From contig JAMLHC010000001.1 of NCBI GenBank assembly GCA_023957335.1, positions 266,017-330,016 of the forward strand: a stretch of DNA of 64,000 nt, in the 5' to 3' direction. The notes under the pieces were generated by a model. The model was given only the letters and a program-made list of their open reading frames with translations. It was not told where the DNA came from and made no database searches. Positions 41,614 to 49,960 of this stretch are shown piece by piece. The position numbers and the translations under genes are program-made. Within the stretch, counting starts at the first letter, position 1; the number at the start of each line of letters is the position of its first letter. The stretch comes from Bacteroidota bacterium (GTDB taxonomy: Bacteria > Bacteroidota > Bacteroidia > NS11-12g > UBA955).

Positions 41614-41650
41614 AAAAAAAAAAGCTGCTTTGTGTAAAAGCAGCTTTTAT
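41614..41650 (-). terminator. Strong rho-independent terminator downstream of the long GAPDH gene
   Basis: On the minus strand: ataAAAGCTGCTTTtacacAAAGCAGCTTTtttttttt, a 12-bp stem followed by T10. Confidence 0.7.
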
Positions 41651-41668: not shown

Positions 41669-43120
41669 TTAATAGTATCTGAGTCTAATCACATCTGACA
41701 GATACTTTGCTAAACGTACTACCTGTCTGCTATAGCCATATTCGTTGTCGTACCACACATACAAGACAGCAGTTTTTCCGTCTTTGCTCACTAACGTAGC
41801 AGGGCTGTCAACAATACTTGCCTGTGGGCTACCCACAAGGTCTGTACTTACCAATTCATTGTTATATGAATACTTGATTTGTTCTACTAAATCCCCTTTT
41901 AATGCAGCATCTTTCAAAATCTCATTGATAGCGTCTTTGTCGGTTGTTTGGTTTAATGTAAGATTCATAATAGCCAAAGACACGTCAGGAGTAGGGACTC
42001 TCACAGCATTTCCGGTGATTTTGCCTGCAAGTTCAGGGATGGCTTTAGAAACTGCTTTGTCTGCACCGGTCTCTGTTATTACCAAGTTGAGTGCTGCAGA
42101 ACGTCCTCTTCTATATTTTTTATGGTAATTATCGAGCAAATTTTGGTCATTGGTATAAGAGTGAATAGTCTCTATGTGTCCGCGCTCAATGCCTAAGGTA
42201 TTGTTAACCACAGCTAAAACAGGAACAATGGCGTTAGTGGTACAAGAAGCTGCTGAAAATATTTTTTCATCTTTGTCATGATTAGCCTGATTAATACCGT
42301 AAACAATATTAGGAATATCGCCCTTTCCGGGAGCAGTCAACAAGACTTTGTCAACTCCTTTGGACAATAAATGTTTACTCAATCCCTCACGGTCTCTTGC
42401 TACACCGGTATTGTCAATCAAAAATGCATTATTAATTCCATATTTGGTATAATCAATCTCTTCAGGTCCTTTTGCAGAAATCATGTGGACGGTATGTCCA
42501 TTGATAATCAAAGCGCGATTCTCAAGATCTTCTATAATGGTTCCGGGGAATGGTCCGTGCACACTGTCCATGCGAAGTAATCCGGCACGTTTAATCAAAT
42601 CTTCATCTGTTTTGTCGCGAGTTACAATCGCACGTAATCGAAGTTGTTCTCCTTTACCTGCCTGAATAATAAGTTCACGTGCAAGAATACGCCCTATTCT
42701 TCCAAAACCATATAACACCACATCTTTGGGCACAAGAACTTTCTTATTCTTCCCAATAAAATCCTTCAATTTGGTATTTACAAAATCTTTGATATTGGCA
42801 TATTGTGCTTTTTCAAGTATCCACTCATGGGTTAATTTTCCAATGTCAAGGCGCGAGGGTGAAATCTCGACCGCATACAACTCTTTGGCAATGAGCAAGG
42901 CATCAAAGATATTGATGGGTTTTTTTACAATTTCTTTTGCATATTGTAACAGACTAAGTATTTGGCTGGCACTGCGGTCCACTACCTGATTTCTAAATAT
43001 AACAAGTTCGACAGATTTATCGAACCACAATGAACCTGTTACGTGAATAAGTTCAATGGCAGCTTTTTCTGCTTTAATCCATTCCTGCAAATCCTGTTCA
43101 TAATTGATTTCTTTCGTCAT
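41669..43120 (-). CDS. Glyceraldehyde-3-phosphate dehydrogenase, long form (about 135-aa N-terminal extension plus GAPDH core)
   Basis: Core: VLYGFGRIGRILAREL (NAD-binding), SAASCTTNAIVPVLAVV (active-site Cys), and ..WYDNEYGYSRQVV.. (GAPDH C-terminus). The core is preceded by an N-terminal region (MTKEINYEQDLQEWIKAEKAAIELIHVTGSLWFDKSVELVIFRNQVVDRSASQILSLLQYAKEIVKKPINIFDALLIAKELYAVEISPSRLDIGKLTHEWILEKAQYANIKDFVNTKLKDF) with no similarity I recognise. Confidence 0.85.
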   Translation of the reverse strand: MTKEINYEQDLQEWIKAEKAAIELIHVTGSLWFDKSVELVIFRNQVVDRSASQILSLLQYAKEIVKKPINIFDALLIAKELYAVEISPSRLDIGKLTHEWILEKAQYANIKDFVNTKLKDFIGKNKKVLVPKDVVLYGFGRIGRILARELIIQAGKGEQLRLRAIVTRDKTDEDLIKRAGLLRMDSVHGPFPGTIIEDLENRALIINGHTVHMISAKGPEEIDYTKYGINNAFLIDNTGVARDREGLSKHLLSKGVDKVLLTAPGKGDIPNIVYGINQANHDKDEKIFSAASCTTNAIVPVLAVVNNTLGIERGHIETIHSYTNDQNLLDNYHKKYRRGRSAALNLVITETGADKAVSKAIPELAGKITGNAVRVPTPDVSLAIMNLTLNQTTDKDAINEILKDAALKGDLVEQIKYSYNNELVSTDLVGSPQASIVDSPATLVSKDGKTAVLYVWYDNEYGYSRQVVRLAKYLSDVIRLRYY

Positions 43121-43308
43121 TTCAATGTTAATTTTTTATCGTGGTGCAAATATAATTGAAGTGAAGCAAAATTTTAAATGAGTTATTAGCTATTTGCCCA
43201 CGTTCAATTTGTATGCGCGAATTTGAATTTGTTAACTTTAGGGATGAGACAACACACCCTTGGGCAGATTTCTAAAATGTCTTTTAATCAATGGTAAGAA
43301 ACACAAAA

Positions 43309-43752
43309 TCAAGAGCTTTGTTTATGCGCTAATTTTCCGCCTACTACCCTATCTACCGGAAATGTAAACATATCTTCTGAAATTCCGACTAATGGTATCC
43401 AACGAAACTTTGCTTGTTCTTGATAAAACGGAGTTGAGTATTGGGCAAAATGCAATTCGTTTACTGATGGACACTCAACTCGATAATAAATACTGATAAT
43501 TTGATCCGTTTCGAGCCATGCGGATTGCAAGAAAAAATCGGTGATATAAAAAAGCTCGCCTACCTCAATTTCCAGCGCAAGTTCTTCTTTGAATTCTCTT
43601 TTCAGACAATCCTTCAGCCCTTCTCCCCATTCGAGTCCACCGCCCGGAAATTTGGTAAAAAATTTTTCCCATCGGAATTCATCGCTCACAAGGACTTCAT
43701 TGCGGTCATTCAACAAGATTCCGTAAACTCTAATATTAAAGCACTTGTTCAT
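43309..43752 (-). CDS. NUDIX hydrolase
   Basis: Nudix box GGGLEWGEGLKDCLKREFKEELALEI (GX5EX7REUXEEXGU). 147 aa. Its start overlaps the 3' end of the ammonia-lyase gene by 17 nt. Confidence 0.8.
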   Translation of the reverse strand: MNKCFNIRVYGILLNDRNEVLVSDEFRWEKFFTKFPGGGLEWGEGLKDCLKREFKEELALEIEVGELFYITDFFLQSAWLETDQIISIYYRVECPSVNELHFAQYSTPFYQEQAKFRWIPLVGISEDMFTFPVDRVVGGKLAHKQSS

Positions 43753-45217
43753 CGATAAATGCTATCGCTTTTTGGATATCGTCATGCAGATAAGTATCTT
43801 TCTCACGAAAAGGTACCACTTTTCTGAAATTTTCAAATACCTGTTTAAGAGTATCCGAAGTTTTATCACTTCCCTGAAAATCCAAGCCCTGACATGCACA
43901 AAGAAGTTCAATGGCAAGAACCGTTTTGAGATTATTTGTAACCTTATACAATTTAGTTGCTGCATTGGCACCCATACTAACATGGTCTTCCTGCCCATTG
44001 CTGCTCACAATGCTGTCCACCGATGCCGGACTTGACAACTGTTTGTTCTGACTTACAATCGAAGCAGCTGAATATTGTGCAATCATATAACCGCTGTTTA
44101 CTCCCGCATTAGGCGTAAGGAAAAGTGGCAATCCTCGTTCTCCTCCAATGAGTTTATAAATCCTCCTTTCACTAATAGACGCAAGTTCTGAAGCTGCAAT
44201 CGCTGCAAAATCCAACTGAAATGCAAGTATTTCCCCATGAAAATTACCCGCACTAAGCACTTTGTCTGCATCCGGAAAAACATTAGGGTTGTCTGTTACC
44301 GCATTAATTTCTGTTTCAAAAACACTCGTAGCATATTCCAAGACCTGTTTGCTTGCTCCGTGTACCTGCGGAATACATCTAAATGAATAAGGGTCTTGCA
44401 CATGTGTTTTAGAACGGGCAGCTATTTGCGAGCCATTGCGCAATTCTGTAATATGTTGTGCTGTAGCAATTTGCCCCTGATGAGGGCGGATTGCATGAGA
44501 TTCATGTGCAAAAGGTTCTGTACGTGCATCAAAAGCTTCCAAGGAAAGTGCGGCAATGATATCAGCCCAATGACTAAGTTTTTTCAGTTCACTCAAACAC
44601 CAAACTCCAAATGCGCTCATAAATTGAGTTCCGTTGATAAGCGCCAAACCTTCTTTTTCTCCAAGTAAAACCGGCTTTAGACCTGATTTGTTTAGAAACT
44701 CAATGCCGGAAATTACATTACCGTTATATCTTAGCGAACCTTCTCCAAAAATCGGCAAACAGAGGTGTGACAGAGGGGCTAAATCACCGGATGCCCCTAA
44801 AGAGCCTTGTTCGTAAACAATAGGTAATGCATTGTGGTTATATAATTCAACTAATTGTTCAACAGTTTGAAGTTTAACACCCGAAAAACCTTTTGCCAAT
44901 GATTTTATTTTCAAAACCAGCATGAGTTTTACAATCTCTTGCGGAATCTCATTTCCTGTACCACAAGCATGCGAGCGCAGCAGATTATATTGCAAATCGG
45001 TCATCTCATGAGGTGGTATGATATGATTACACAGCGACCCAAAACCTGTATTAACACCATAAATCGGCTCTTTTGATGTTTTGATTTTATTTTCAAGGTA
45101 GGTTCTGCAATGAGTTATACTATTTTGAGATTCAATGCTCAGAGATAGTTTTTCATTGCTTTGTACAAACTTTCTTGTTTGTCCAATTGTTATATGTTCT
45201 TGGGGGTCTATGACCAT
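43736..45217 (-). CDS. hutH: Histidine ammonia-lyase family (MIO-dependent aromatic amino acid ammonia-lyase)
   Basis: GSLGASGDLAPLSHL carries the Ala-Ser-Gly triad that forms the MIO cofactor. 493 aa. Its start overlaps the hisS stop by 10 nt. The substrate (His versus Tyr/Phe) cannot be decided by eye. Confidence 0.82.
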   Translation of the reverse strand: MVIDPQEHITIGQTRKFVQSNEKLSLSIESQNSITHCRTYLENKIKTSKEPIYGVNTGFGSLCNHIIPPHEMTDLQYNLLRSHACGTGNEIPQEIVKLMLVLKIKSLAKGFSGVKLQTVEQLVELYNHNALPIVYEQGSLGASGDLAPLSHLCLPIFGEGSLRYNGNVISGIEFLNKSGLKPVLLGEKEGLALINGTQFMSAFGVWCLSELKKLSHWADIIAALSLEAFDARTEPFAHESHAIRPHQGQIATAQHITELRNGSQIAARSKTHVQDPYSFRCIPQVHGASKQVLEYATSVFETEINAVTDNPNVFPDADKVLSAGNFHGEILAFQLDFAAIAASELASISERRIYKLIGGERGLPLFLTPNAGVNSGYMIAQYSAASIVSQNKQLSSPASVDSIVSSNGQEDHVSMGANAATKLYKVTNNLKTVLAIELLCACQGLDFQGSDKTSDTLKQVFENFRKVVPFREKDTYLHDDIQKAIAFIDEQVL

Positions 45218-46593
45218 GATTTCGTTTTCTTAATAAATGTCTCAATATCCAATGTTTCTTGGTCACCACTTTCGAGATTTTTTAGGGCAACCTGCTTATT
45301 TATTCTTTCGTTCTCACCTATGATAGCTACAAATTTGACTTTAGCAGCATTTGCATAGTCAAGTTGTTTTTTCAACTTGCTTGCTTCGGGATATACATTA
45401 CAAGTGATTCCTTCGCTCCTGAGTCTTTCCGCAATCGGAATACAGAATGTTAAAGATTGTAAATCTAATCCACAAAACAGCACTTTGCAATTTGCACCTG
45501 TATCTTGCGGATAAAGATTATGTGATTCCATCAAATCATAAATTCTATCTGCCCCAAAACTGATTCCCACTCCTGAAATTCCGGGCATATCGAAAATACC
45601 GGTAAGGTTATCATACCTTCCTCCGGCAGCAATACTTCCGATACCTGAATCAGGTACTTTTACTTCAAAAATACATCCGGTGTAATAACTTAATCCTCGC
45701 GCAAGAGTTCCATCAAAGAGAATATGATGGTTGAATCCGCTTGCTTCCAGATACACTAACAAACTCTCAAGTTCGCTGATGCCAACGGAGCCAATTTCAG
45801 TCTCTGCAAGCATGTCTTTCCATTTTGTCAGACTCTTTGAATCAAGTGTTGAACTGATAAAGAATTGTTCTGCCTTTTGGATTTGTTCATCAGTAAAACC
45901 ACGCTCTTGCAGTTCTTTTCTCACACCCTCTTTCCCAATTTTATCAAATTTGTCAAGAGCGACCGTAAAATCACTAAATCTTTCTGTTGCCCCAATCATT
46001 TCTGCGACACCTTCCAATACTTTTCGATTATTTATATGAATCACATAGTTTTTAATTCCGAGCTTTTGAAAAACCCTATGAAAAACTGCCGTTAAATCTG
46101 CTTCACATACTAAACTATCTGTCCCAATAATATCGGCATCACATTGCCAAAACTCCCTATAACGACCTTTTTGCGGTCTATCTGCTCTCCAGACGGGCTG
46201 CATTTGATATCTTCTAAAAGGAAGCTTAACTATGTGCCTATTCATACTGATATAGCGAGCAAATGGCACGGTCAAATCATAGCGCAAAGCTCTGCCGGCA
46301 ATATGAGGTGCAACTTCTTTTGCAGTAATTTCACTGATGTTCTTTTCACGACCAAAAACCTTCTCAACATTACCTAAGAAATCCCCATTGTCCAGAATCT
46401 TAAAAAGCAGATGGTCTCCTTCATCACCATATTTCCCAATCAGGGTTTCTAAATTTTCAACAGCAGGAGTTTCAATGGCATTAAAACCATATAGCTTAAA
46501 AACGTCTTCAATATTGCCAAAAATGAATTTTCGCTTTTTCATTTCTTCGGCACCGAAGTCGCGCGTACCCTTTGCCAGTGATGCTTTGCTCAT
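45208..46593 (-). CDS. hisS: Histidyl-tRNA synthetase
   Basis: Class II aaRS motifs: ..FRRYQMQPVWRADRPQKGRYREFWQCDADIIG.. (motif 2 and HisA region), ..GGRYDNL.., and a C-terminal anticodon-binding domain. 461 aa. Confidence 0.93.
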   Translation of the reverse strand: MSKASLAKGTRDFGAEEMKKRKFIFGNIEDVFKLYGFNAIETPAVENLETLIGKYGDEGDHLLFKILDNGDFLGNVEKVFGREKNISEITAKEVAPHIAGRALRYDLTVPFARYISMNRHIVKLPFRRYQMQPVWRADRPQKGRYREFWQCDADIIGTDSLVCEADLTAVFHRVFQKLGIKNYVIHINNRKVLEGVAEMIGATERFSDFTVALDKFDKIGKEGVRKELQERGFTDEQIQKAEQFFISSTLDSKSLTKWKDMLAETEIGSVGISELESLLVYLEASGFNHHILFDGTLARGLSYYTGCIFEVKVPDSGIGSIAAGGRYDNLTGIFDMPGISGVGISFGADRIYDLMESHNLYPQDTGANCKVLFCGLDLQSLTFCIPIAERLRSEGITCNVYPEASKLKKQLDYANAAKVKFVAIIGENERINKQVALKNLESGDQETLDIETFIKKTKSWS

Positions 46594-46735
46594 TGCTATT
46601 CTTAATTTTCGTAAATGGCTTCAAAAGTAAGACAAAATAGCGGTTAAGGAAAAATCACATGAATCTATACAACCGCATATAACAGACTTATTCAATCTGA
46701 ATAAATAGAGTAGTATCAAACGTATAGCAAATACG

Positions 46736-49700
46736 TTATTCTTTGATAATTTTAACTGCTACATTCTGTACTTTTAGAATATAGATACCCGGCACAATAC
46801 CGGAAAGGTCAATTTCAGTCTTATCATTTTGGGTAACACCTTCTTTCACAACACGTCCTTGCAAATCCATCACCATATATACCCCTTTGACAGAACCAAA
46901 ATAAGTAAAGATTCCTGTAGTCGGGTTAGGATAAATGTTAAGGGCGTTTGTCTCAGTTTCAATCTCATCCACACCAGTTGATTTGCAGACTCCGGCATCG
47001 GTAATAGTCCACTTATTGGTCTTGGTCAATGTGTTTCTATATGTGGTAGCCGTAGAAACATATTTTATACCCATGGCGCCACAAGTAATGTTTTTGGGAG
47101 TAGCCATATTTTTTGACCAGCCCTCAAGGGTGAGCCCATAGTTTGAACAATCCAACCCGCACAGATCAAAAATATTTCTTAAATTTACATTTGTTCTCAA
47201 AGTCCAAGAACCTAAATTTTGATTAAAAGAAGTGGCGGAGGCAAACATTTTATTCATATCGCTTACAAGAGTAATATTCCAGCTATCAAGTGATTGATTA
47301 AAAGCACTGCACTGGTAAAACATACTTGCCATATTATTAACTTTAGAAACGTTCCATGCAGCAAGTGACTGATTAAAGTCAGATGCATTTTTGAACATAG
47401 CATTCATATTGGTTACATTGCTTGTATTCCAAGAGCCAATATTTTGGTTAAAACTACTTGCACCGTCAAACATGTTAGACATATTAACAACCTTAGATGT
47501 ATTCCACAGACCTATGTCTTGATTGAATGCTTGGGCATTCAAAAACATATTGGACATATCGGTAACATTCTCAACGTCCCAACTATCAATACTTTGATTA
47601 AAAGATGTTGCACCTGAAAACATACCTGATTTGTCAGTTACAATGCTCGTATTCCAACTATTTAGATCTTGATTGAATTTGGATGCATTATTAAACATGT
47701 TGCGCATTGAAAGCACTTTACCAGTGTTCCAATTGCCAATATACTGATTAAAATTACTTGCATTTTGAAACATTGCAGACATATCCGTAACATTCTCTGT
47801 ATTCCAAATCCCAATATCTTGGTTGAAATTTTTTGCATTCGCAAACATACCATTCATATTGGTGATATTGGTAGTAACCCAATTCCAGTTTGCTCCTATT
47901 CCGGTAAGCGAAGTGCAATTATTAAACATAAATTTAGCACCGGTTGTAAATCTCATATCGGGCAAATCGGTTGCTGTAATTTCCAAATTCGAACATCCGA
48001 AGAATGCTGAATCAAAACTGTTCCAAGCTATGCCACCCCATTGAGTAATTTGCCTAATCTTGGATTTCTCAGCACCATTATTAAAGAAAAATCTTGGGAA
48101 ATCGCGGTCAATATCTATTCTATAGCTTGTATTGGCTTTCAACCCTATTATTCTTACGCTATCTTTCACCGATGTTAAGATTCCATTGTTTGCAGGATTG
48201 GCTATTTCCTCCCAATAAAGATCATAATCATAACCGCTTCCTTTAGTAGGGATTAATATATAGGTTGAGTTTTCTGTATTCCAAATTGTCACAAGTGGGC
48301 TACAGAATGTTGCAACACCAGAATCTGTAATATTCCAGCCTTTATTCGTAAGCATTGTTCTTGCACTGCTCGCAGAACTTGAATATTTGAGATCATTGGC
48401 ACCGAGTGTTCTGCCGTTAGGAATATTAGGATTAGAAGCCCAACCAATAAGGGTATTCCCATAGTTCTTGCAATCTACACCACTATTATCAAGCATTCCT
48501 TCCATATTAACTTGATTGTTGATTATCCATGAACCTAATGTTTGGTTAAAAGCTGTTGCATAAGAGAACATATAGGACAAATCAGCAACATTGCGGACAT
48601 CCCACACACTGATCATTTGATTAAAATCAACAGCCCCGTTAAACATTTGACTCATGTTAGTAACATTTACAGTATTCCATCGGCTAATGGGCTGATCAAA
48701 CAACAATGCGTTAACAAACATATTACCCATATTGAGCACATTATCAGTATTCCAACCACTAATATTCTTATTGAATTTTGAAGCTCCGGCAAACATATAG
48801 CTCATGTCAACAACTTTGGCAGTATTCCAACTTCCAATATTCTGGTCAAAGTTAATTGCATTATAAAACATGCGATTCATGTTTGTTACATTAGAGGTAT
48901 TCCAGGCGGCAATACTTCCATTGAATTTTGTAGCATTCTCAAACATACTGCGCATTTCGGTAACATTTTCTGTGTTCCAAGTACCAATACTCTGATTAAA
49001 TGCAATGGCATTGTTGAACATATAGCTCATATCGGTTATATTGACTGTATTCCAAGCACTTATATCTTGATTAAAAGCGGATGCCGAATTAAATAACCAA
49101 CTCATATCTTTCACTTTATCTGTAACCCAAGCACCAATATTTCCATTAAACTTAGTCGCTTTATAGAACATTGATTTCATGGAAGTAACATTCTTAGTGT
49201 CCCACGCCCCAATGTTCTGATTAAATGCGCTAGCATTACTGAACATATAACCCATATCAGTCACATTAGCTGTATTCCAAAGTCCGATGTTTTGATTAAA
49301 AGCAAGAGCATTGCAAAATACTGAGTTCATGTTGTTCACATTTACCGTATTCCAACTACCTATATTTTGATTAAATTTTGAAGCCCCATAGAAAAGGTAT
49401 GCCATATTACCGATTTTCTCTGTATTCCAATTCCAGTTGGCTTCTGTTCCAATAAGGGAGGTGCAGTTGGCAAACATATATGATAACGAACTCACATCTT
49501 GCAAGTCGGGGACATCAGTTGCTGAGATATCCAAATTTGAACAGCCGAAAAAAGAACCTTCAAAACTTCTCCATTCAATATCGCCCCACTTAACAATATT
49601 GCGAATCTTAGTCTTGTCACCCTTATTAGCAAATAGAATCACCGGGAATTGTCCAGAAATTTCTATCCGGTAATACTTATTTGAACTTAATCCTGATATA

Positions 49701-49960
49701 GTTGTAGCTCCTGTTTGTCCGGTGATAGTTCCATTTTGTGTAGAATCGTCCATTGCAACCCAATAAACATCATAATTATAACTATATGATGCCGAATTAG
49801 CACTGATGGGAATAGTAATATTAGTTGTATTTCCTGTATTCCATGTGGTCACAAATGGCTGTGTTTGTCCATTTAAGGAACTTAAATTTACCATAAACAA
49901 AGAACCCATCACAGAAAGCGGAATCAAATTAAAACTGAGTGAATTGCGAAATAGTTTCAT
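46736..49960 (-). CDS. T9SS-secreted BspA-like surface protein built from DUF285 (Mycoplasma-type) repeats, with two homologous tandem modules and a C-terminal Por-secretion sorting domain
   Basis: Signal peptide. Each module is a beta-rich head (..TTWNTGNTTNITIP.. and ..VTIWNTENSTYILIP..) followed by about 13 units of about 25 aa (..MFxNAxxFNQ[ND]IGxWNTSNVTxMxx..). C-terminal T9SS CTD LNIYPNPTTGIFTYF....GIYILKVQNVAVKIIKE. 1074 aa. Confidence 0.85.
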   Translation of the reverse strand: MKLFRNSLSFNLIPLSVMGSLFMVNLSSLNGQTQPFVTTWNTGNTTNITIPISANSASYSYNYDVYWVAMDDSTQNGTITGQTGATTISGLSSNKYYRIEISGQFPVILFANKGDKTKIRNIVKWGDIEWRSFEGSFFGCSNLDISATDVPDLQDVSSLSYMFANCTSLIGTEANWNWNTEKIGNMAYLFYGASKFNQNIGSWNTVNVNNMNSVFCNALAFNQNIGLWNTANVTDMGYMFSNASAFNQNIGAWDTKNVTSMKSMFYKATKFNGNIGAWVTDKVKDMSWLFNSASAFNQDISAWNTVNITDMSYMFNNAIAFNQSIGTWNTENVTEMRSMFENATKFNGSIAAWNTSNVTNMNRMFYNAINFDQNIGSWNTAKVVDMSYMFAGASKFNKNISGWNTDNVLNMGNMFVNALLFDQPISRWNTVNVTNMSQMFNGAVDFNQMISVWDVRNVADLSYMFSYATAFNQTLGSWIINNQVNMEGMLDNSGVDCKNYGNTLIGWASNPNIPNGRTLGANDLKYSSSASSARTMLTNKGWNITDSGVATFCSPLVTIWNTENSTYILIPTKGSGYDYDLYWEEIANPANNGILTSVKDSVRIIGLKANTSYRIDIDRDFPRFFFNNGAEKSKIRQITQWGGIAWNSFDSAFFGCSNLEITATDLPDMRFTTGAKFMFNNCTSLTGIGANWNWVTTNITNMNGMFANAKNFNQDIGIWNTENVTDMSAMFQNASNFNQYIGNWNTGKVLSMRNMFNNASKFNQDLNSWNTSIVTDKSGMFSGATSFNQSIDSWDVENVTDMSNMFLNAQAFNQDIGLWNTSKVVNMSNMFDGASSFNQNIGSWNTSNVTNMNAMFKNASDFNQSLAAWNVSKVNNMASMFYQCSAFNQSLDSWNITLVSDMNKMFASATSFNQNLGSWTLRTNVNLRNIFDLCGLDCSNYGLTLEGWSKNMATPKNITCGAMGIKYVSTATTYRNTLTKTNKWTITDAGVCKSTGVDEIETETNALNIYPNPTTGIFTYFGSVKGVYMVMDLQGRVVKEGVTQNDKTEIDLSGIVPGIYILKVQNVAVKIIKE
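47005..48010 (-). repeat. Tandem coding repeat array (about 75-bp / 25-aa DUF285 units), module 2. Approximate boundaries.
   Basis: Periodic recurrence of FNQ[ND]I..WNT.NV..M..MF in the translation. Boundaries estimated from residue positions of about 650-985. Confidence 0.6.
48550..49510 (-). repeat. Tandem coding repeat array (about 75-bp / 25-aa DUF285 units), module 1. Approximate boundaries.
   Basis: Same periodicity as module 2. Residues about 150-470 of the protein. Confidence 0.6.

Follow-up and report, generated by a model that had tools for sequence, protein, structure and literature searches.

The stretch considered here, referred to as the window, comprises 64,000 nucleotides of a Bacteroidota bacterium (contig JAMLHC010000001.1 of assembly GCA_023957335.1, positions 266,017 to 330,016). 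On its minus strand, three genes predicted to encode histidyl-tRNA synthetase (HisRS; gene hisS), histidine ammonia-lyase (HAL; gene hutH) and a Nudix hydrolase (here nudix) follow one another with overlapping ends. In the explanation that we consider probable, they form a unit headed by a housekeeping gene, the lyase is a genuine HutH, hisS and hutH are an old pair, and the Nudix gene has been appended recently. The genes and their junctions are as follows.

45208..46593, minus strand: hisS, histidine--tRNA ligase, 461 aa, first gene of the unit (open reading frame (ORF) list, TIGR00442)
43736..45217, minus strand: hutH, predicted histidine ammonia-lyase, 493 aa, second gene (ORF list, TIGR01225)
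43309..43752, minus strand: Nudix hydrolase gene, 147 aa, third gene, a probable lineage-specific addition (ORF list, PF00293)
45208..45217, minus strand: 10-nt overlap of the hisS stop with the hutH start, ATGGTCATAG (sequence reading)
43736..43752, minus strand: 17-nt overlap of the hutH stop with the nudix start, ATGAACAAGTGCTTTAA (sequence reading)

At the first junction hisS ends with TCA TGG TCA TAG and the lyase starts with ATG GTC ATA G; at the second, the lyase ends with GAT GAA CAA GTG CTT TAA and the Nudix ORF starts with ATG AAC AAG TGC TTT AA. A preliminary description of this DNA had reported three minus-strand genes with overlaps of 10 and 17 nt, and both the ORF listing and the reading of the junctions bear this out. 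Gene overlap by itself is unremarkable in the window, where 10 of 33 same-strand ORF neighbour pairs overlap if the longest-ORF starts are used. What exceeds chance is the recurrence of the hisS-hutH adjacency across many other genomes.

The -7 box of Bacteroidota promoters follows the consensus TAnnTTTG, and a scan with this pattern, whose matches are consensus matches only and mark candidate sites, together with a terminator scan outlined the borders of the unit.

46622..46629, minus strand: candidate -7 box TACTTTTG, 29 nt upstream of the hisS ATG (TAnnTTTG scan)
43147..43154, minus strand: candidate -7 box TATATTTG, 27 nt upstream of the ATG of the glyceraldehyde-3-phosphate dehydrogenase (GAPDH) gene, at the unit boundary (TAnnTTTG scan)
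41620..41648, minus strand: terminator-like hairpin, a 12-bp stem followed by a T run, strong, 3' of the GAPDH gene and the first downstream of the unit (terminator scan)

The 400 nt preceding hutH and those preceding nudix contain no match to the pattern, and the terminator scan reported no terminator-like site between nudix and the GAPDH gene, which the second box suggests has a promoter of its own. These candidate signals agree with transcription of hisS-hutH-nudix as a unit from the hisS promoter. Together with the tight junctions found in all close relatives, the presence of a -7 box only before hisS supports the single transcription unit proposed in the preliminary description, and the three genes look like one such unit. 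A sigma-70 scan returned 20 sites against 15.9 expected and was set aside, since the promoter consensus of Bacteroidota is not the sigma-70 one. No Rfam family came near its threshold in a scan of positions 43000-47000, which thus showed no T-box or leader element, and the predicted hisS leader has too little room to hold a riboswitch or T-box.

The encoded proteins

The product of the first gene looks like an ordinary housekeeping histidyl-tRNA synthetase. It passes the hisS equivalog model TIGR00442 with 380.1 bits (cut-off 286.75), contains the Pfam domains tRNA-synt_His (PF13393) and HGTP_anticodon (PF03129), and aligns full-length with the solved HisRS 6nhi (445 bits, residues 3-455). Against the HisZ model TIGR00443 it reaches 158 bits, compared with a cut-off of 271.65, and all HisZ models fall far under their cut-offs. 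Its scores against the models, the presence of an anticodon-binding domain and the alignment with 6nhi along the whole length thus point to a normal housekeeping enzyme, and they led us to reject a HisZ-like protein or specialised paralogue. The query set of the neighbourhood tblastn search detected no second hisS in the window.

The second gene encodes what is, judged from its sequence, a genuine histidine ammonia-lyase HutH, which would convert L-histidine to urocanate and ammonia. The protein scores 605 bits against PF00221 and passes both the HutH equivalog TIGR01225 (603.6 bits, cut-off 539.15) and NF006871 (623.1 bits, cut-off 524). It fails the model for the tyrosine ammonia-lyase (TAL) FlxA, NF053541 (340.7 bits, cut-off 700), and stays under all cut-offs of the phenylalanine ammonia-lyase (PAL) and aminomutase models; the latter are missed by far, which rules out an aminomutase. 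Its best solved relatives are HALs, namely 6v6h with 381 bits and the Pseudomonas putida enzyme (1gkm) with 358 bits. Tyrosine aminomutases (about 271 bits), the chains of 2o6y and 2o78 (about 212), an ergothionase (6s7j, 197) and PALs (below 155) score lower. The entries 2o6y and 2o78 were deposited as putative HAL; we take them to be the Rhodobacter TAL. An ergothionase identity is ruled out by the 197 bits of 6s7j against 381 for HAL.

The residues on which the assignment turns are encoded at the following positions.

44786..44794, minus strand: codons for Ala142-Ser143-Gly144, precursor of the MIO cofactor (translation ASG; aligns to A142-S143-G144 of P. putida HAL)
44969..44974, minus strand: selectivity motif 1, Ser82-His83, HAL type (translation SH; aligns to 'lshaag' of P. 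putida HAL; invariant in alignment A1)
43988..43990, minus strand: selectivity motif 2, Glu410 (translation E within SNGQEDHV; invariant in A1)

The ASGDL motif noted in the preliminary description is present as GASGDL, with the MIO triad inside GSLGASGDLAPL and its columns invariant in 34 relatives. The same invariance holds for the whole set of residues (Y53, S82-H83, A142-S143-G144, N195, Y277, R280, F326 and E410) that match the catalytic and imidazole-binding residues of the P. putida enzyme (HutH, EC 4.3.1.3, PDB 1B8F/1GKM), with S82-H83 and E410 aligning to the H83 and E414 region of that protein. Motif 2 is always Glu in HALs and Gln in TALs and PALs (PMC3992019). Schöner et al. have shown that the Bacteroidota 'HAL' FlxA is really a TAL with a HAL-like motif 1 (PMC3992019). 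FlxA, the flexirubin-pathway enzyme of Chitinophaga pinensis (Cpin_1853), belongs to the same MIO lyase family and phylum as the window lyase and was likewise annotated as HAL (PMC3992019). It differs from the window lyase in carrying Gln at motif 2 and in being encoded inside a polyene biosynthesis cluster, whereas the window lyase has Glu410 and the neighbours hisS, nudix and GAPDH. The preliminary description had entertained a TAL- or PAL-like lyase and suggested a phylogeny and an inspection of the selectivity residues; the lyase groups with Bacteroidota HutH and carries HAL-type residues, both of which contradict that idea.

The third gene encodes a Nudix protein that is most likely a general house-cleaning pyrophosphohydrolase. 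It matches PF00293 with 46.4 bits (cut-off 21.1) and remains under every equivalog cut-off of the specific Nudix subfamily models, including the MutT equivalog TIGR00586 (39.4 bits, cut-off 97.9), so that an identity as MutT 8-oxo-dGTP diphosphatase is not supported. Among solved structures it comes closest to generic MutT/Nudix proteins and ADP-ribose pyrophosphatases. The Nudix box consensus is GX5EX7REUXEEXGU, and the window protein fits it save for an Ala in place of the last Gly.

43573..43641, minus strand: Nudix box, residues 38-60, GGLEWGEGLKDCLKREFKEELAL (translation)

The window protein thus shares the Nudix fold domain and a near-complete Nudix box with the MutT/Nudix house-cleaning pyrophosphohydrolases, from which it differs in falling below each specific equivalog cut-off. 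Overall, each of the three proteins is an ordinary representative of a well-known family, and the hisS-hutH pair is common in the sampled Bacteroidota and can be seen with any genome browser.

Distribution of the gene pair and of other hut genes

A scan of GTDB species representatives with the HAL alignment yielded 80 loci, all Bacteroidota-like in content; the closest HAL homologues come from uncultivated Bacteroidia. Among the 75 loci in which the upstream region is present, 30 have hisS as the immediate upstream neighbour of hutH in the same orientation (32 if two with a single small ORF in between are included), a figure that describes this sample, ranked by similarity to the window HAL and made up of species that are not independent, and is no phylum-wide frequency. 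The pair is found in three Pontibacter species, two Cyclobacteriaceae, Vicingus (Vicingaceae), Salibacteraceae and Crocinitomicaceae, in several metagenome-assembled genomes (MAGs) of Flavobacteriales, in six environmental Bacteroidales MAGs and in many unclassified Bacteroidia. No sampled locus of Flavobacterium, Pedobacter, Myroides, Taibaiella or Flavipsychrobacter has the pair. One Flavobacterium (L052) has hisS nearby on the opposite strand. In Flavobacterium loci (L021, L034, L035, L038, L042, L054, L066, L073, L077, L088 and others) hutH has, divergently upstream of it, a thrA-thrB-thrC cluster encoding bifunctional aspartate kinase/homoserine dehydrogenase, homoserine kinase and threonine synthase.

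Where the HAL is 97%, 80% or 77% identical, the contig carries the complete hisS-hutH-nudix triad between differing flanking genes, and the hisS and hutH genes of these relatives overlap by 7, 4 or 1 nt. At 58-62% HAL identity the pair occurs without nudix, and with other flanks again, in a Logan/ENA contig, a Crocinitomicaceae MAG and a Bacteroidia MAG. The 36 hisS-hutH junctions available comprise eight overlaps and 13 spacers of 0-20 nt, so that 21 are overlapping or no more than 20 nt long. The spacers of 60-240 nt often hold a perfect hairpin right after the hisS stop (L014 and L018, also L013 and L015), for example CCTCTCCAAAGGAGAGG in L014 and CCACAAAG...CTTTGTGG in L018. Such hairpins could be partial terminators or stabilisers that permit differential expression of hisS and hutH.

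A neighbour-joining tree of the HALs is broadly taxonomic and places the window lyase among Bacteroidota HutH. The HALs encoded in two hut clusters (L026 and L092, described below) nest among the hisS-linked HALs, and the hisS-linked gene is therefore an ordinary hutH orthologue and no specialised paralogue. Taken together, hisS-hutH appears to be an old gene pair that has been vertically inherited across many Bacteroidota lineages, and it can serve as a useful conserved synteny marker for them. No description of the pair was found in the literature searched, whose coverage was incomplete, which makes this weak evidence of novelty. Two loci labelled 'uncultured Akkermansia sp.' (L029, CAZAPH010000055.1) and 'Variovorax paradoxus' (L043, CALRRY020000014.1) have Bacteroidota-type hutH contexts. 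In the tree their HALs fall among sequences of Bacteroidia and Flavobacterium, which points to mis-binning or mislabelling of these MAG contigs.

The conservation of the arrangement across related Bacteroidota, which the preliminary description had put forward as a check, thus extends well beyond a single strain for hisS-hutH and is restricted to a close clade for the third member. The Nudix gene follows hutH only in the clade with HAL identities of at least 77%. Within this clade it is intact and conserved: the protein is 71-72% identical in L002-L006, and the 17-nt overlap with hutH is identical in L001-L006. A tblastn search found no Nudix homologue near hutH in the 62% relative or in any of the 80 GTDB loci. 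Family members with 50-68% identity are nonetheless widespread among Crocinitomicaceae-like lineages, and a 68% orthologue is located beside an outer-membrane protein gene and gidB. In the complete genome of a Fluviicola sp. (CP170456.1; L095:5235-6890) a 53% orthologue overlaps an upstream small ORF and is flanked by two MazG/PRA-PH-like pyrophosphohydrolase genes, which hints at a nucleotide house-cleaning cluster. Since nudix is limited to the close clade and its orthologues occupy unrelated contexts, its link to hutH is recent and probably incidental, and the pathway role that had been suggested for the enzyme is unlikely.

The remaining genes of histidine utilisation were sought with HutU, HutI and FtcD queries from the Bacteroidota loci L026 and L092, which had been verified by NCBIfam. 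There was no tblastn match to hutU, hutI or ftcD in the window, and Pfam scans of 20 further window proteins found no urocanase, imidazolonepropionase, arginase-fold or GntR protein. The preliminary description was therefore right that hut partners are missing from the window, and its premise that hutH canonically sits with hutU and hutI does not hold in the sampled Bacteroidota, where neither gene lies within 10 kb of hutH in 88 of 92 loci. Among the window and these 92 loci, hutU or hutI occurs within this distance only in L026, L092 and two Pedobacter genomes. The rumen Bacteroidales locus L026 has an ftcD-hutU-hutH-hutI cluster, the Muribaculaceae locus L092 has hutH-hutI with ftcD two genes further on, and in the two Pedobacter genomes hutU begins about 6-9 kb past the end of hutH. 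With a Bacteroidales HutU as query, a protein search matched rumen Bacteroidales sequences only, all at least 89% identical, and none could be assigned to a pair-carrying genome. The window gene thus fails the clustering test of a canonical hut operon (hutH with hutU, hutI, hutG/ftcD and a HutC-type regulator): no hutU, hutI or regulator of this type adjoins it, and it overlaps hisS instead. As a location apart from hutU and hutI is the rule in the sampled Bacteroidota, their absence from the window is normal and no evidence of an unusual role.

Possible functions of the unit

In the explanation that we favour, hisS, hutH and nudix would share a transcript that starts at a promoter shortly before hisS and would be coupled in translation, which would have HutH made at a basal, growth-linked level. 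Characterised HALs have millimolar Michaelis constants (Km) for histidine and HisRS enzymes micromolar ones. Given this gap, co-expression of a histidine-charging and a histidine-consuming enzyme need not be metabolically contradictory; futile competition would be avoided, and HutH would remove only surplus histidine. The urocanate formed would feed, and perhaps induce, hutU and hutI encoded elsewhere. In Pseudomonas the effector of HutC is urocanate and not histidine (PMC12977541), and by analogy a constitutive HutH would turn a histidine surplus into an inducing signal. If the coupling is functional, the unit would be a simple and widespread case in which the gene of a tRNA synthetase drives expression of an enzyme that degrades the cognate amino acid, and it would bear on how Bacteroidota balance charging against degradation. 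To our knowledge, Bacteroidota lack most of the classical amino-acid-sensing leader RNAs.

Several points weigh against this explanation. The promoter is a consensus match only, and we infer both the co-transcription and the translational coupling. A complete Hut pathway in the source genome is assumed, and hutU, hutI and a formiminoglutamate-processing gene were found neither in the window nor near any hisS-linked hutH. In 15 of the 36 hisS-linked loci the spacer exceeds 20 nt, reaching up to 240 nt and sometimes containing hairpins, and these lineages may express hisS and hutH differentially. Finally, the Km values behind the kinetic argument are those of enzymes from other organisms.

Alternatively, hisS and hutH could be neighbours by descent only, with hutH having come to depend on the hisS promoter, which would make the pair difficult to separate, with no adaptive logic in the co-expression and with the Nudix gene added by chance. 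Flavobacterium, Pedobacter, Myroides, Taibaiella and Flavipsychrobacter have lost the pair with nothing evident in its place, which is in line with such neutral synteny, as are the Flavobacterium with hisS on the opposite strand, the frequency of overlapping neighbours in this genome and the clearly recent, lineage-restricted Nudix gene. However, the pair persists across several orders while both flanks reshuffle, and most junctions are held at 20 nt or less. Persistence and tight junctions are the usual signature of a selected operon, yet they are no proof of an adaptive reason; on balance we regard neutral synteny as unlikely, though it deserves serious consideration.

A stronger functional claim would be that hisS-hutH is a dedicated histidine-homeostasis module, in which the enzymes, made in stoichiometric amounts through translational coupling, set free histidine and urocanate signals surplus, extended in the window lineage by a Nudix enzyme for clearing side products of HisRS, for instance diadenosine tetraphosphate (Ap4A) or histidyl-adenylate, with some carriers lacking hutU and hutI. 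We consider this combination improbable. It would represent a lyase-based counterpart of the hdc-hisRS clusters, in which the aminoacyl-tRNA synthetase (aaRS) gene is under T-box control; the window has a housekeeping-like hisS, and no T-box or leader RNA was detected between 43000 and 47000. Such clusters, hdcA/hdcB/antiporter/hisRS in Tetragenococcus and Lactobacillus reuteri and hdcA/antiporter/hisRS in Klebsiella aerogenes, link a HisRS gene to an enzyme that consumes free histidine, as in the window, and thus provide a precedent for the association of an aaRS gene with catabolism of the cognate amino acid (PMC8465708). The window unit differs from them in encoding an ammonia-lyase instead of a decarboxylase, in lacking an antiporter, in having hisS first and in belonging to another phylum.

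There is only a slim chance that HutH stands alone, with hutU and hutI lacking and urocanate as the end product. The enzyme could then serve as an ammonia-releasing histidine sink or supply an ultraviolet-absorbing compound, a signal or the precursor of an electron acceptor. This would account for the absence of hutU, hutI and ftcD from the window and from the 10 kb around any hisS-linked hutH, and for the decoupling of hutH from the remaining pathway in most sampled Bacteroidota. Against it, the window HAL is orthologous to the HALs of the two hut clusters, which nest inside hisS-linked clades, scattered hut genes do occur in the phylum, as the two Pedobacter genomes demonstrate, and a 64-kb window is uninformative about a multi-megabase genome.

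A functional tie of the Nudix enzyme to the operon, in which it would hydrolyse a nucleotide-linked by-product formed either by HisRS (Ap4A or histidyl-adenylate) or in the pathway, is very unlikely. It is general knowledge that aaRS enzymes are sources of Ap4A and that some Nudix enzymes are Ap4A hydrolases; the 17-nt overlap has been kept in six close-relative loci, the 71-72% identity reflects purifying selection, and an inorganic pyrophosphatase gene is found two genes downstream of hutH in six other loci. Nevertheless, the association is confined to the clade with HAL identities of at least 77%, the 68% and 53% orthologues adjoin unrelated genes, and no specific Nudix subfamily model is matched. 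The idea that the lyase acts on tyrosine or phenylalanine, feeding a cinnamate, coumarate or aryl-polyene pathway, is barely credible, because although FlxA illustrates that sequence-based calls can mislead, the window lyase fails the FlxA model while passing the HutH equivalog, has the HAL-type Glu410 and HALs as best solved relatives, and has no CoA ligase, ketosynthase or other polyene genes nearby; it should not be annotated as TAL or PAL.

Neighbouring genes

A protein of about 195 aa without a Pfam match is encoded directly downstream of hutH in 13 loci, 12 of them independent, as L011 and L012 duplicate one organism (L011:9506-10090 on the plus strand; also L014, L015, L016, L018, L019, L020, L027, L030, L039, L053 and L055). 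Its signal peptide precedes a Cys-x-Cys motif, and it also has other conserved cysteines and a transmembrane helix at the C-terminus. The protein is a more widely conserved neighbour of hutH than the Nudix enzyme, to which it is unrelated, ruling it out as a counterpart of the Nudix gene; it also occurs in three loci without hisS upstream. In six loci its gene is followed by that of the inorganic pyrophosphatase.

Directly upstream of hisS in the window, positions 46736-49960 of the minus strand encode a 1074-aa surface protein with PARCEL/DUF285 repeats (490 bits with the Mbov_0838-family repeat model). In the 97% relative (L001) ORFs of 452, 108 and 437 aa take up the corresponding region, and the third has a Por_Secre_tail domain; this suggests that the repeat protein is rapidly varying or decaying. 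On the other side of the unit, 188 nt downstream of nudix, lies the long-form GAPDH gene (41669-43120, minus strand; 483 aa; NF006139, 691.6 bits), which occupies this position only in the window and the 97% relative and not in the 77-80% relatives.

In some genomes other amino-acid-cleaving enzymes dependent on pyridoxal phosphate adjoin the hisS-hutH pair. In the 77% relative a tyrosine phenol-lyase gene (L002:6999-8381, minus strand; TIGR02618, 776.6 bits) is divergent upstream of hisS, and in a Flavobacteriales MAG a threonine-aldolase/GntG-family aldolase gene (L063:11490-12503, plus strand) is located just downstream of hutH.

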